Below the pieces are notes generated by a model, which saw nothing but the letters and a program-made list of their open reading frames with translations, was not told where the DNA came from and searched no databases. Of a stretch of 64,000 nucleotides of DNA, positions 12,735 through 56,993 are shown in pieces; the first letter of the stretch is position 1; each line of letters opens with the position of its first letter. This DNA is from Candidatus Latescibacterota bacterium. Its GTDB lineage: Bacteria; Latescibacterota; UBA2968; UBA8231. Location of the stretch: positions 1-64,000 of the forward strand of contig SLHA01000007.1 in NCBI GenBank assembly GCA_007136405.1, written 5' to 3'. The position numbers and the translations under genes are program-made.

Positions 12735-13622
12735 ATGCTCACTGACAGTGTACTGGATCTGATCGGCAATACCCCGCTGCTGCGGCTCAGGCAGGAGCAC
12801 ATCTACGCCAAGGCCGAGTTTCTCAATCCGGGCGGCAGCATCAAGGACCGCGTCGCCCTGGCCATGATCGAGGGCGCGGAGAGAGACGGCCGCCTGACCA
12901 GCGGCTCGGTGCTGGTGGAACCCACCTCCGGTAACACCGGCATCGGCATCGCCCTCGTAGGACGACTCAAGGGCTACCAGGTGCGCATCGTCATGCCGGA
13001 GAATATGAGCGATGAGCGCAAGAAACTGATCATCACCCTGGGCGCCGAACTCGTATTGACGCCGGCTGGCGCGAGCATCCAGGGGGCCGTCGACAGGGTC
13101 AAGGCCATGCAGGCCGAGGAAAGCCGGGTCTTCGTATGCCAGCAGTTTGAGAACCCGGACAATCCGCGCGTCCATTACGAAGAGACGGCCCATGAGCTCT
13201 GGCGCCAGATACGCGGCGACATCGGTTGCTTCGTGGCCGGGGTCGGCAGCGGCGGCACGCTCCAGGGCGTCGCCCGGTTTCTCCGCGAACGCAAACCGGA
13301 GGTGCGCATCGCGGCGGTAGAACCCAGGAATGTCGCCGCATTGTTGGGCCACGAACCCGGTCTGCATCAGATCCAGGGCATCGGCGACGGTTTCGTTCCG
13401 GATATTCTGGATGTTTCCCTGATCGATGCGGTCGTCGAGGTCACGGATGAAGATGCCATAGAGACCACACGTCAGCTTGGCAGGGATTATGGTTTGATGG
13501 TAGGGATATCGTCTGGCGCCAATGTCTGGGCCGCCCGCCAACTGGCCAAGCATATACCAGGCAATATCGCTACGGTGTTGCCAGACCGGGCGGAGCGGTA
13601 CTTCAGCACGGCGTTGATGTAG
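12735..13622 (+). CDS. cysK: Cysteine synthase A (O-acetylserine sulfhydrylase), PLP-dependent
   Basis: IGNTPLLRL...NPGGSIKDRVALAMI (PLP-binding Lys), GNTGIGIA, GVGSGGTLQG motifs. A GC-rich terminator hairpin follows it. Confidence 0.85.
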   Translation: MLTDSVLDLIGNTPLLRLRQEHIYAKAEFLNPGGSIKDRVALAMIEGAERDGRLTSGSVLVEPTSGNTGIGIALVGRLKGYQVRIVMPENMSDERKKLIITLGAELVLTPAGASIQGAVDRVKAMQAEESRVFVCQQFENPDNPRVHYEETAHELWRQIRGDIGCFVAGVGSGGTLQGVARFLRERKPEVRIAAVEPRNVAALLGHEPGLHQIQGIGDGFVPDILDVSLIDAVVEVTDEDAIETTRQLGRDYGLMVGISSGANVWAARQLAKHIPGNIATVLPDRAERYFSTALM

Positions 13623-13632
13623 ATCATCGCTC

Positions 13633-13662
13633 CTTGCCGGCGCCGGCGCCGGGCCGGCAAGG
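13633..13662 (+). terminator. GC-rich hairpin terminator after cysK
   Basis: CCTTGCCGGC-loop-GCCGGCAAGG perfect 10-bp stem. A second hairpin (GGACCGGA...TCCGGTCC) follows. Confidence 0.5.
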
Positions 13663-13779
13663 CGGAAGGACCGGACCGGCTGAACCGGCGCATCCGGTCC
13701 GGTTCCCGGCAACTCCACCAGGCATCCAACGCGGCACTAACAGGCCTGCAGGCGGTGCCGCGAAGACAATACTAACGCG

Positions 13780-13985
13780 GAGGCTTGCACCGCGGACATT
13801 TAGAGACTATGCTTGTGTAAGAAAGACATTATAACTGGAGATGAGGAGGCTAACCGCGCGAAAGCGCGGGGCGCAAAGGAGCGGGTCCTCGTCAGACAAC
13901 CGGGGCATCACAGACCAACGCTCGGTGGCTCTGCACAAGACAGCCGCACTGCTGAACCATCCGGCAGTGCGGTTTTTTCCAACCC
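13780..13985 (+). ncRNA. Candidate cis-regulatory leader RNA or small RNA of unknown class
   Basis: Non-coding 200-nt stretch starting in an AT-rich patch. It contains GGAGAUGAGGAGG...GCGCAAAGGAGCGGG...CUCUGCACAAGACAG, ends in an intrinsic terminator and abuts the AAGGAGG RBS of the next gene. Loose resemblance to the conserved glycine-riboswitch segments GGAGAG / GCGCCGAAGGAGCAA / CUCUCAGGCAAAAGGACAG, not secure by eye. Confidence 0.3.
13943..13978 (+). terminator. Canonical intrinsic terminator (8-bp GC stem plus T6 tract) ending a ~200-nt structured leader or sRNA upstream of the TPR lipoprotein gene
   Basis: CCGCACTG-ctgaaccatccgg-CAGTGCGG-TTTTTT. A T-tract terminator is unusual in this GC-rich window. 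Confidence 0.6.
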
Positions 13986-14013
13986 ACAGTTTGCGGCAAG
14001 GAGGTTGGCGGTT

Positions 14014-14478
14014 ATGATCCGACATGCCTTAACAGCTGCACTGATCCTGTTGCTGTGTGCCTGCGGTGATCCCTATCAGCAGGGACAAACGGCTTTCGAG
14101 GAAGGACGGTGGGAAGAGGCCATCGCCCGTCTGGAGCGGGTCCGGGTTCTGGATGCCAACTATCAGGAAGCAAGGCGTTTGATCGCGCGCGCCAACTTCC
14201 AGCTGGGAAAAGAAGCCTACGAGCGTCAGGAATGGAGCGATGCCCTGCAGTATCTGCAACGGGTCAGTCGCTCGGATGTTGATACTCAGGCAGCCCGTGA
14301 TCTGATCAGCAGCGCTCATTTCGAGCAGGCACAAGAGGCCTTGGAACACGGTGATCAGGAGGAGGCTGTGCGCCTGCTCAGCAGGGTCACCCGGGACTGG
14401 AAACGCTATGCCGAGGCCGAAAGCCTGCTCGTCAAGCTCAGGGATGAGGCTGCGCCGATCGCGGAGGATGCGGACTGA
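14014..14478 (+). CDS. TPR-like repeat lipoprotein
   Basis: AAGGAGG RBS. Lipobox MIRHALTAALILLLCACG. The sequence reads as tetratricopeptide-like helical repeats (EEGRWEEAIARLERV, YQEARRLIARANFQLG, WSDALQYLQRV). Confidence 0.6.
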   Translation: MIRHALTAALILLLCACGDPYQQGQTAFEEGRWEEAIARLERVRVLDANYQEARRLIARANFQLGKEAYERQEWSDALQYLQRVSRSDVDTQAARDLISSAHFEQAQEALEHGDQEEAVRLLSRVTRDWKRYAEAESLLVKLRDEAAPIAEDAD

Positions 14479-14545: not shown

Positions 14546-15460
14546 ATGGAAGTGAGCATGATATGGGATAGAGCGCCCCACAATGCGTTCACCGATTTGA
14601 TACGTTTCCGTGAGCAGTGGTATTGCGCCTTCCGCGAAGGTGACAGTCATGTCTCGGAGAGCGGCAATCTGCGGGTGATCCGTTCTCTGGACGGCAGGCA
14701 CTGGACATCGGCCGCGCTGATGTGCTGGGATGGCGGCGATGTGCGCGATGCCAAGCTGTCGATCACAGCAGACGGCCAGCTCATGCTGAACGGCGCCGTG
14801 CGTCTGCTGCAGCCGCTGGGTGAGAACCGCCATCAGTCGCTGACCTGGCTGTCCCGGGACGGAGAGACCTGGAGCGGAGCGTACGCCTGTCCTTCGGGAC
14901 TGGGCACCTGGCGCTGGAGCGCCACCTGGCACCAGGGTGCAGGATACAGCTTCGGGTATAGCGGCAAAGACAGCCGCGGCACGCTGTACCGAACCTTTGA
15001 CGGGATCCACTGGGAAACGATCGCCCAGGAGGTTTTTCCCGAGGGTTATGCCAACGAGACTTCCATCGCCTTTGCGCCGGACACGGCGTACTGCCTGCTA
15101 CGCCGCGACCCGAGAGACGGCGGTCCGGAAACGGCGCAACTGGGTTCGGCGAAGCCTCCCTATGTCAACTGGACCTGGGTTGATCTCGGCCTGCGTCTGG
15201 GCGGCCCCAAGATGATCCGGTTGGAGGATGGTCGCCTGTTGGCTGTGGTGCGTCTACACGAACCTGCCCGGACGACGTTGTGCGAAGTTCAACCGGAACC
15301 CGGCCACGTGACGACACTGCTGGACCTGCCTTCGGGAGGAGACACCAGTTACGCCGGCATGGTGGTGCACCAGGGCCAGCTCTGGATCAGTTACTACTCG
15401 TCGCACCAGGAGAAGACGCAGATTTACCTGGCCAGGACCGATATTCCGGACCGTCACTGA
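14546..15460 (+). CDS. BNR/Asp-box repeat protein (sialidase-like beta-propeller)
   Basis: Three Asp-box-like motifs (SLDGRHWTS, SRDGETWSG, TFDGIHWET). GAGGAGAAAG RBS before MEVSMIW. The upstream part of the track ORF is Arg-rich and spurious. Confidence 0.6.
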   Translation: MEVSMIWDRAPHNAFTDLIRFREQWYCAFREGDSHVSESGNLRVIRSLDGRHWTSAALMCWDGGDVRDAKLSITADGQLMLNGAVRLLQPLGENRHQSLTWLSRDGETWSGAYACPSGLGTWRWSATWHQGAGYSFGYSGKDSRGTLYRTFDGIHWETIAQEVFPEGYANETSIAFAPDTAYCLLRRDPRDGGPETAQLGSAKPPYVNWTWVDLGLRLGGPKMIRLEDGRLLAVVRLHEPARTTLCEVQPEPGHVTTLLDLPSGGDTSYAGMVVHQGQLWISYYSSHQEKTQIYLARTDIPDRH

Positions 15461-15727
15461 CCGTTCCAGCCTCTTGGACCACCGCTTCCGGTGCTGTTGG
15501 CCTCCAGTATCCACGGGTGCCGCTTGTACAGGTCCTGGCGGTCTGAGGCGAAACATCCTCAGTGCTGGCGGCATTGACTCTGTCAGGCGCCACACAACTC
15601 ATCATACACGTGTTCTTCCCCTACGGGTGAAGAACCAACCCATTTCGGGCAATCCGGGGTCTGCCTTACGGGGCCCAATCCCGGATTCGCTGCGACCCAC
15701 AACGTCAGCCAAACGGACAGTGCCGAT

Positions 15728-16495
15728 ATGAAACTATCGTTGTCTGGCCGCATACTGCAGGGGAGCCCCACCCCGTTGTCGCCTGCCGATTTTATCCACC
15801 TGGCTCGTGATACCGGATTCGACCTGGTGGAGCTACGCGCCGATCAGGTTCCGGTGGACAGTTCCGAGGCCGAACTGGCTGCTCTGCACCGAGTGCTCGA
15901 TGATGCCGGAATCGGTGTCTCCATGCTGGTCATCGGCGGTGTTGCCGAAGTGGACTCCTGGATCCGCGTGGCCCGCGCGCTTGGCGTGTTGAACTTACGC
16001 GTCAACGGCACGGTAGATAGTATAGCCGCCGCAGCGGATGCGATGCCGGCTGACGTTCGGCTGGTCACGCAGATGCACAGCGGTTCGTCATTCGAGAATG
16101 TTGCCCAATCCGCCGCTAATCTGACCCGCATTCCCAGTCCGCGTTTCGGTCTGATGCCAGAGCCGGCCAACCTGCTCTTTGCCGGGGAGCGATGGTCGCC
16201 TGAGCTGTTCGCTCCCCTGCAGGAGCGGATATACGGCTGCAATGCCCAGAGCATCGCCCTGGATCCGGATAGCGGCAACCGGGTCATGATGAACGATGGC
16301 AGGCAGATCGGGTACAAGCGGCTGGATTGGCGCGACAACCATGATCTGGACTTCCCCGGTTTCCTTGCCGCTTTACGGGCCGTGGGATACGACGACTTCA
16401 TCAACTTCATCGATCCCTCGGATCCCGGCATGTCCCTGCAGGAACTGGCCGCCGGCACGGCGGCGTACGCCAGGGAGTGTCTGGCAGCAGTATGA
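15728..16495 (+). CDS. Sugar phosphate isomerase/epimerase (xylose-isomerase-like TIM barrel)
   Basis: Length and pattern of the AP-endonuclease-2 / xylose-isomerase-like TIM-barrel family. Conserved acidic residues in DLVELR and FENV-like segments. Confidence 0.55.
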   Translation: MKLSLSGRILQGSPTPLSPADFIHLARDTGFDLVELRADQVPVDSSEAELAALHRVLDDAGIGVSMLVIGGVAEVDSWIRVARALGVLNLRVNGTVDSIAAAADAMPADVRLVTQMHSGSSFENVAQSAANLTRIPSPRFGLMPEPANLLFAGERWSPELFAPLQERIYGCNAQSIALDPDSGNRVMMNDGRQIGYKRLDWRDNHDLDFPGFLAALRAVGYDDFINFIDPSDPGMSLQELAAGTAAYARECLAAV

Positions 16496-55881: not shown

Positions 55882-56027
55882 TCCGGCCTTTCCACCAGGA
55901 AAAACGCCAGCGCCGTGGGGTCCACGCCGGCGACCTCGAGCATGAGTCTCAGGTAGATTGCCAGGAGAAGGATCAGCAGGACGATCACCACCCCGAGCCC
56001 GAGCAGCATCGCATTGGCTCTCTTCAT
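55848..56027 (-). CDS. Small (59-aa) single-pass membrane peptide
   Basis: Perfect AAGGAGG RBS 6 nt before ATG. Hydrophobic helix LLGLGVVIVLLILLLAIYL. It overlaps the convergent GH4 gene end by ~34 nt, which lowers confidence. Confidence 0.35.
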   Translation of the reverse strand: MKRANAMLLGLGVVIVLLILLLAIYLRLMLEVAGVDPTALAFFLVERPDHGWAQCSGHA

Positions 56028-56174: not shown

Positions 56175-56993
56175 TCAGGACACTGCATCGCTCACCTCGG
56201 TTTCGTGCAGACGGACACAGGTGGCGATCCAGAAGAATGGCGCCAGAAGCGCCTGGTAGATCACTCCCACGACGACCCGGACGATGCCCGAGGTAGCAGC
56301 CAGAGACTCATGCCAGGGCGTATCTTTACCGGCATTCCGAAGTAACTCGAGCAGGCTGGCCTGCGGCATCATGCCGTCAAAGTAACCCGTGAAGACGATC
56401 CTGAAAACGGCCGCGGCGACCCACGACAGGGCGATGAAGAACACCACCAGCGACAGTATCGTCTTGATGAAATGCAGCTTCCGGAAATAGGCCGCGCCGA
56501 AAAGGAAGATCGACTGCATGATCCAGTAGTTGTGCACCGCCCGCAGCGCCTCCCGATCGAGCGGGTTGAAGATGCCCGGAGAGCTCCCGGTCAGCACGCC
56601 GGCGATTCCAGCGGCCAGGACTGTCGCCAGAAAGTAGCCGACAAGCACCGCTGAGGCGTAGCCGACGCTGGTGAGGAGCAATCTGGCGACGAACTTCTCG
56701 GCGGTCGACGCCGGCAGCATGAACCAGTCGTGGTTTCGCGCCTTGTCATGCACCTCGCGGAAGGCCCTCGAGGTGACGATCAAACCACCGATGTACAGGA
56801 GCTGCCTGAAGACGGCCTGATGACCGCCTGCCGTGCCGATGACGAGCGTCGGCGTGTGCGTGGAGATGCCGTGCATCAGGTAGAAGAGAAGAACGATACC
56901 CGCGACCGTCGCCGCACTCAGTGCCACCGGCCGCAGGACCTCGGCGATGTCGCGCTTGAGCAGAAGCCGGATCCTCCGGAGGGTCCCGTTCAT
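56175..56993 (-). CDS. ABC-2-type transporter permease
   Basis: Six predicted TM helices. Start codon overlaps the stop of the upstream ATPase gene (ATGA). Confidence 0.55.
   Translation of the reverse strand: MNGTLRRIRLLLKRDIAEVLRPVALSAATVAGIVLLFYLMHGISTHTPTLVIGTAGGHQAVFRQLLYIGGLIVTSRAFREVHDKARNHDWFMLPASTAEKFVARLLLTSVGYASAVLVGYFLATVLAAGIAGVLTGSSPGIFNPLDREALRAVHNYWIMQSIFLFGAAYFRKLHFIKTILSLVVFFIALSWVAAAVFRIVFTGYFDGMMPQASLLELLRNAGKDTPWHESLAATSGIVRVVVGVIYQALLAPFFWIATCVRLHETEVSDAVS

Follow-up and report, generated by a model that had tools for sequence, protein, structure and literature searches.

A divergent leader of the c-di-GMP-I (GEMM-I) riboswitch family, a likely transcriptional ON switch, upstream of a TPR lipoprotein gene in an uncultured Latescibacterota bacterium

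In the first 64,000 nucleotides of contig SLHA01000007.1 (GenBank assembly GCA_007136405.1, Candidatus Latescibacterota bacterium; the whole of this stretch is called the window below), a non-coding gap of 391 nt separates cysK from the gene for a tetratricopeptide repeat (TPR) lipoprotein, and this gap contains the leader that we analyzed as a candidate riboswitch (Table 1). An earlier note, made from the letters alone, had described a structured non-coding leader with an AT-rich start between these two genes, preceded by two GC hairpins behind cysK. Both descriptions were borne out by our analysis. GC content drops to 32.5% at 13800–13839, compared with 63.6% in the whole window, the gene calls for the lipoprotein begin at ATG 14014, and two strong GC hairpins directly follow cysK. 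A 221-aa open reading frame that starts with TTG and spans the leader (13813–14478) was rejected, because every gene call starts at ATG 14014, which has a strong Shine-Dalgarno (SD) sequence. The 154-aa version starting from this ATG is called by gene callers on six public contigs.

We scanned the whole window against Rfam 15 (4,227 families) at the gathering thresholds. The sole match in the 64 kb was the aptamer of the cyclic di-GMP (c-di-GMP)-I riboswitch family, also called GEMM-I (RF01051), which lies in the leader and was aligned over the full model (positions 1–87 of 87) with a score of 40.6 bits, compared with a gathering score of 35, and an E-value of 1.7e-4 for the whole window and all 4,227 families. 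The covariance-model scan therefore gave c-di-GMP-I, at gathering score, for a class that the earlier note had left open. In a permissive scan of the whole window (E ≤ 1), no further family was listed at this locus, and neither a tandem aptamer nor an extra GEMM copy was found in the window at E ≤ 1 or in 13600–14100 at E ≤ 10. We also built a covariance model, R1, from 58 metagenomic relatives, with the window excluded. R1 has a single match in the window, at 13836–13961, with 45.9 bits and an E-value of ~1e-9, which, like all E-values of this model, is rough. The 5' half of R1 matches by construction, as the relatives were picked with a pattern derived from the window sequence. The 3' half (GACAGCCG..CUGC..AA) lies outside that pattern, yet it is only partly independent, because the 58 training sequences were chosen with the help of a permissive regular expression that matches the 3' motif. 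The signal in the leader is the covariance-model match and not folding energy: the 241-nt leader stretch as a whole has an unexceptional folding stability (z −1.58), and the aptamer alone folds with a z of −0.20.

Residue numbers used below are those of Vibrio cholerae Vc2, to which the Rfam model positions are taken to correspond. In the RF01051 alignment, the first hairpin of the leader, P2, has the 2-bp and 6-bp stems, the 3-nt internal loop between them and the GNRA cap that define the first hairpin of GEMM (PMC1950547). It is followed by the AAA linker, which joins the two hairpins in 320 of 322 GEMM sequences (PMC1950547). All three equivalents of the ligand-contact nucleotides are kept: G13848 (G20), A13875 (A47) and C13952 (C92). 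G20 recognizes one guanine of the ligand, an adenine at this position (G20A) being typical of aptamers for cyclic GMP-AMP (cGAMP), and C92 is the Watson–Crick partner of the second ligand guanine (PMC6140456); A47 is a ligand-contact residue (PMC4744006) and intercalates between the ligand bases. The guanine at the G20 position argues for c-di-GMP over cGAMP as the ligand. The interhelical C44–G83 pair, described as universally conserved (PMC4744006), has its equivalent in C13872 of the P2 internal loop and G13943 of the AG bulge in P3. In P3, 8 of the 10 consensus pairs form, and pairs 3 and 4 are non-standard (G13879·A13948 and A13880·C13947). By the sequence-and-structure model, the architecture and the ligand-contact nucleotides, the leader is a member of the GEMM-I family.

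The relatives were obtained from metagenomes by means of a pattern in which the conserved frame of P2 was fixed and four inner positions of each stem strand could vary. Of the 90 aptamers returned, 80 pair at all four free positions and 10 at three of the four, and more than 50 different sequence combinations occur. In the 58-relative alignment, 93.1% of the GEMM-I structure cells are paired, compared with 78.0% in shuffles and 32–46% when the partners are slid, and 16 of the 23 pairs changed on both sides. The first genes after the relatives encode GGDEF proteins (5), HD-type phosphodiesterase-like proteins (2), an EAL protein (1), pilin-like proteins, FliD, surface proteins of the fibronectin-type, PKD and immunoglobulin-like kinds, and secreted peptidases. 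These genes are the type of regulon expected for c-di-GMP. Several relatives carry two GEMM-I aptamers in a row, often spaced by 165 nt and each followed by a separate terminator, matching the tandem arrangement reported for GEMM in 2007.

The leader ends in a rho-independent terminator with an 11-bp stem including one G·U pair (13 bp when two U residues of the tract join), a 7-nt loop and U6. This hairpin has a free energy of −23.3 kcal/mol (z −5.94), and none of 200 shuffled sequences was as stable. The earlier note had proposed an 8-bp stem plus TTTTTT, directly abutting the AAGGAGG ribosome-binding site, as the only clean T-tract terminator in the window. The T6 tract stood, whereas the stem proved longer and 19 nt (13979–13997) lie between the tract and the SD sequence. 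In a custom scan of both strands of the window, which have only 24 T-runs with at least five T, it was the best hairpin plus T-run. It is not the sole one, because a weaker hairpin with T5 at 55945–55900 on the minus strand (−20.9 kcal/mol), second-best in the scan and downstream of a minus-strand gene ending at 56175, is likely an intrinsic terminator as well. A standard terminator scan missed the leader hairpin, which the custom scan recovered; the extension of the stem into the tract, leaving fewer than five T, presumably accounts for the miss.

The 5' arm of the terminator, 13944–13954 (CCGCACUGCUG), is made up of the P3 3' strand, C13952 and the next two bases, and terminator and aptamer have 11 nt in common. 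Because this strand belongs to both folds, aptamer and terminator are mutually exclusive. When 13830–13985 was folded with nearest-neighbour energies only, the terminator fold was the minimum, at −63.0 kcal/mol, compared with −44.7 kcal/mol for the aptamer-enforced fold. The higher stability of the terminator fold indicates that termination is the default state, and ligand binding must supply the difference. In addition, the 19-nt spacer is too short for a promoter, so the lipoprotein gene, whose start codon lies 36 nt after the U-tract, should be transcribed through the terminator, as expected for an ON switch. A terminator that overlaps the second hairpin was reported in 78 of 322 GEMMs, for which Weinberg et al. 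proposed an ON mechanism (PMC1950547), and we found the same layout in 7 of 64 relatives. In the pilM ON switch, which has been dissected experimentally, the terminator captures the ligand-pairing C (PMC9262584). Together, the RF01051 match and the overlap of aptamer and terminator support the layout of a transcription-attenuation riboswitch, one of the two readings offered in the earlier note.

According to the mechanism that we propose, transcription would probably start in the AT-rich stretch just upstream of the aptamer. In the absence of ligand, the far more stable terminator would form, taking the 3' strand of P3, and the transcript would stop at the U-tract; this OFF state would probably be aided by an 8-bp helix that holds the 5' junction and the 5' strand of P3. 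Binding of c-di-GMP would let P3 and the pocket retain the CCGCACUGCUG strand, which would block the terminator, and RNA polymerase would then read into the TPR lipoprotein gene and probably also into the next two genes. We consider it likely that the leader is a c-di-GMP-I (GEMM-I) riboswitch acting as a transcriptional ON switch, whose ligand and in vivo direction we infer from its sequence. A sigma-70 consensus scan matched nothing in the AT-rich segment 5' of the aptamer; the best hand-picked promoter match, TTGCAC (13785–90) and TATGCT (13808–13) with a 17-nt spacing, is weak (7 of 12 positions). In the minimum free energy structure of the 241-nt leader stretch, CCAACC (13979–84) and GGUUGG (14003–08) form a small hairpin, which in this model could partially occlude the two final G's of the SD sequence in read-through transcripts.

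The 8-bp helix is formed by GAUGAGGA and UCCUCGUC, encloses P2 and cannot coexist with either P3 or a free J1/2. In the nascent RNA 13838–13900, P2 folds enclosed by this helix with −27.1 kcal/mol (z −3.79), and none of 200 shuffled sequences was as stable. The duplex itself has −13.1 kcal/mol, compared with −3.9 ± 2.0 kcal/mol (minimum −8.9) in 78 relatives, none of which has a comparable 8-bp alternative helix. Several divergent positions of the leader coincide with it. The helix may be an anti-aptamer element; alternatively, the surroundings of the pocket may have drifted or been re-specified.

A number of features weigh against a c-di-GMP-responsive switch. The RF01051 score is only 5.6 bits over the gathering threshold. 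The third pair of P3, G13879·A13948, is C–G in 54 of the 58 relatives and unpaired in none. At −3 and −2 from G20 the leader has G13845 and G13846, where A is found in 78 and 70, respectively, of 79 distinct relatives, these adenines being a conserved and not a class-defining feature. A18 of Vc2, which corresponds to position −2, is among the ligand-contacting residues in a molecular-dynamics preprint (10.1101/871194). The tetraloop receptor opposite the GAAA loop is missing, with CCUCG...CAAG instead of CUAAG...UAUG; its loss does not exclude membership, because only about half of GEMMs carry a receptor (PMC1950547). No helix directly follows C92, and in the R1 alignment the consensus P1 positions are unpaired. 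The best candidate for P1, GAUG 13840–43/CAUC 13958–61, comes past a 5-nt gap, the other option being two G·U pairs; among the relatives, P1 is paired in just 69% of cells. P3 closes over a 51-nt loop without significant structure (z 0.02). We rejected a stable extension helix in the P3 insert, which folds no better than shuffled sequence. The 8-bp helix, formed ~50 nt ahead of the 3' strand of P3, could by this folding model trap the RNA. A crude motif search of the window for the GGDEF, HD-GYP and two EAL-domain signature strings found none. Finally, no orthologous leader was found at cysK loci, on contigs with the lipoprotein, near homologs of the next gene or among the metagenomic aptamers.

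These features could be explained if the leader were a GEMM-I homolog that has lost its response to c-di-GMP, either because the surroundings of the pocket have been re-specified for ligand or affinity, or because it is a decaying aptamer within an attenuator that is constitutive or otherwise controlled. Three near-invariant positions adjacent to the pocket are changed (G13845, G13846 and G13879·A13948), the receptor is absent, P1 is displaced, the score is low, and the strong alternative helix is absent in the relatives. However, G20, A47, C92 and C44–G83 are all retained, and the terminator coincides exactly with C92 and the P3 3' strand, the placement seen in functional ON switches. Moreover, if termination 36 nt ahead of the ATG were constitutive, the gene would be silent, although its SD sequence is strong and its frame is intact in six assemblies. 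Some relatives vary at −2 too. We therefore regard loss of the response as unlikely. There is also a small chance that the leader is the first member seen of a divergent GEMM-I subtype, in which the pocket-adjacent changes (AA to GG and C–G to G·A) and the loss of the receptor co-evolved with the 8-bp anti-aptamer helix. Such a subtype might have an altered ligand or affinity, or might work by an unusual exchange of two helices, with the junction capturing the 5' strand of P3 in the OFF state and the terminator capturing its 3' strand.

It is very improbable that there is no riboswitch at all and that the Rfam match arose by chance, with the hairpin and U-tract serving as the last terminator for cysK or as the end of a separate small RNA. 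The unexceptional folding energies of the leader and of the aptamer would suit this explanation, and a short terminated RNA would be made anyway. By contrast, the E-value of RF01051 holds window-wide and the partly independent R1 gave a far lower one, and the match runs over the full length with every ligand-contact nucleotide. The two strongest hairpins lie directly after cysK, 240–340 nt upstream of the leader terminator, and the spacer after the terminator leaves no room for a promoter of the lipoprotein gene. The independent small RNA, the second reading in the earlier note, found no support beyond the terminated leader transcript that is expected in the OFF state.

We give still less weight to a Geobacter-like cGAMP riboswitch (GEMM-Ib), although its fold and clan are identical, its ON-switch terminator layout in pilM resembles that of the leader, and the changes beside the pocket might permit some shift in selectivity. 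The defining feature of GEMM-Ib is an A at position 20, and wild-type Vc2, with G20, binds cGAMP at ~10 µM compared with picomolar c-di-GMP (PMC6140456). The leader has G13848 at this position, not adenine, and we rejected this class. A glycine riboswitch, to conserved blocks of which the earlier note had seen a loose resemblance, or another known class has next to no chance of being correct, as nothing was found in its favour, no glycine family is listed in 13600–14100 at E ≤ 10, and the one significant match falls in the c-di-GMP-I clan.

We then considered the genes that a c-di-GMP-I ON switch would control here. The signal peptide of the TPR lipoprotein ends in LLCAC. GEMM target genes follow an "environment, membrane, motility" pattern (PMC1950547), and the lipoprotein fits this pattern, though TPR proteins are not recurrent in our small sample of relatives. 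The worry in the earlier note that the downstream gene does not match the leader thus disappears, because GEMM targets typically include genes for membrane or envelope lipoproteins (PMC1950547). The lipoprotein gene, the gene for a 304-aa protein and that for a TIM-barrel protein lie on the same strand, 67 and 267 nt apart and uninterrupted by any T-tract terminator, and the three are probably co-transcribed and co-regulated by the leader. In the 267-nt gap, a stable hairpin is found at 15650–15690 (the AAUCCGGGGUC...GAUCCCGGAUU region; 15590–15730 folds with a z of −2.64), which could be a terminator or a processing site that parts the TIM-barrel gene from the riboswitch transcript. The 304-aa protein has over 4000 homologs, which some sources name exo-alpha-sialidase. 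On other contigs its homologs adjoin genes of the BNR_2 sialidase-like and GH95 families (L088 1926–2921; L089 4001–4948). One homolog directly follows type II secretion/type IV pilus genes, including one for an ATPase with an MshEN domain, a domain that binds c-di-GMP.

Table 1. Features of the leader and its surroundings. Positions refer to the window, except in the last row, where they refer to the contigs named.
Feature	Positions	Strand	Details
cysK	12735–13622		TIGR01139 above its cut-off
Two strong GC hairpins directly after cysK	~13632–13662 and 13668–13705		jointly −54.4 kcal/mol, z −2.9
Two smaller GC-rich hairpins 5' of the leader	13730–13762 and 13776–13794		
AT-rich segment, putative promoter region	13797–13836	+	just 5' of the aptamer; position proposed from base composition
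c-di-GMP-I (GEMM-I) aptamer, RF01051	13838–13956	+	covariance-model match
Alternative 8-bp helix	13840–47/13886–93	+	encloses P2
G20 equivalent	G13848	+	model position 11 in the RF01051 alignment
P2 hairpin	13849–13874	+	2 bp 13849–50/13873–74; internal loop UAA/GGC; 6 bp 13854–59/13864–69; GAAA 13860–63
AAA linker	13875–13877	+	RF01051 alignment; A13875 is the A47 equivalent
P3	13877–13950	+	pairs 13877–78/13949–50, 13882–84/13944–46 and 13885–87/13939–41; AG bulge 13942–43
P3-loop insert	13888–13938	+	~45 nt, compared with 13 in the consensus
C92 equivalent	C13952	+	RF01051 alignment; pairs with G13964 in the terminator fold
Intrinsic terminator	13944–13978	+	stem 13944–54/13962–72; loop AACCAUC 13955–61; U6 13973–78
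Shine-Dalgarno AAGGAGG	13998–14004	+	9 nt 5' of ATG 14014; read from the sequence
TPR lipoprotein, predicted first regulated gene, 154 aa	14014–14478	+	Pfam TPR_16, TPR_2 and TPR_19 above their cut-offs
304-aa protein	14546–15460	+	no Pfam or NCBIfam match
Xylose-isomerase-like TIM-barrel protein	15728–16495	+	Pfam
Tandem-aptamer relatives	L107 2545–2741; L114 6706–7649; L118 1983–2178; L119 1025–1220; L153 13570–13765; L110 169–350		

All four GC-rich hairpins between cysK and the leader (13632–13794) are without a U-tract, and they may be U-tract-less terminators of cysK or repeat-like elements.

Six contigs carry an identical lipoprotein: three in NCBI assemblies, two in ENA assemblies and one in a sequencing run. 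These six public contigs are 99.8–100% identical to the window, with the leader unchanged in all of them. Because the six leaders are identical and no ortholog was found, there is no covariation support for this copy itself. A search of 5.8 billion proteins returned no homolog of the lipoprotein, an unreliable result given that the lipoprotein itself was not returned though it is present on at least 10 contigs. Proteins 71–80% identical to the 304-aa protein are encoded in other contexts with no GEMM match, and none of the metagenomic aptamer matches has the flanks of the leader or the lipoprotein. Similarly, 80 cysK-anchored loci from other genomes (L001–L080) showed no synteny and no leader in common. 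CysK is 75–83% identical to proteins of metagenome-assembled genomes (MAGs) labelled Verrucomicrobia, Planctomycetes, Hydrogenedentes, Anaerolineae and others. With no neighbour gene in common, cysK is a poor anchor of taxonomy or synteny for this genome. Two of the NCBI assemblies, PWKT and PXAB, are listed as Candidatus Handelsmanbacteria MAGs from sediments of Kulunda Steppe soda lakes, and the third, SKWH, is listed under the Latescibacteria class UBA2968 (PMC6146748 and PMC6704655, supplements). The host is an uncultured lineage of Candidatus Handelsmanbacteria/Latescibacteria, with a genome from soda-lake sediment metagenomes.

With the assignment to GEMM-I, a leader that carried no annotation gains a concrete candidate signal, c-di-GMP, and a direction, ON. 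The results suggest that, in an uncultured haloalkaliphilic sediment bacterium, an envelope TPR lipoprotein is raised at high c-di-GMP, probably together with a sialidase-like propeller protein and a sugar-isomerase-like enzyme; if true, such a response to c-di-GMP would be typical of the transition to a surface-attached lifestyle. GEMM-I riboswitches, the way they work and their broad distribution among taxa have been known since 2007–2008, and this copy is picked up by a standard Rfam scan. Novelty is confined to the instance: a divergent copy in an uncultured soda-lake lineage, ahead of a probable TPR lipoprotein operon and with an unusually strong alternative helix. Its divergent sequence tests the dispensability of the junction nucleotides and opens no new riboswitch class.

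Compared with Vc2 of V. cholerae, the type example of GEMM-I, the leader has the same P2/P3 architecture, GAAA loop, AAA linker, G20, A47 and C92 equivalents and C44–G83 pair. As in other GEMM-I riboswitches, it lies in the 5' untranslated region of an envelope protein gene and its terminator overlaps the 3' side of P3. It differs in having GG for AA 5' of G20, G·A for C–G in P3, no 11-nt receptor, no P1 directly after C92, a 45-nt insert in P3 and the 8-bp alternative helix absent in 78 relatives, and in its uncultured Handelsmanbacteria/Latescibacteria host. The c-di-GMP-I-GGC variant (RF03167), a member of the same clan, scores 40.2 bits on the same stretch and was rejected, as its gathering score is 59 and it has G after the closing GC of P2 (GACGCGAAG), whereas the leader has the A13875 of the canonical class. 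In the pilM cGAMP riboswitch (GEMM-Ib) of Geobacter metallireducens, aptamer and terminator are likewise mutually exclusive, and the terminator pairs with the C that recognizes the ligand (C75 there, C13952 here); pilM has A at the position of G20 and senses cGAMP, whereas the leader has G13848. Bc1 from the Bacillus cereus group is likewise described as a class I aptamer combined with rho-independent terminators in a long expression platform; Bc1 uses two terminators and dual regulation, whereas the leader has one terminator that directly overlaps P3 (PMC11218506).

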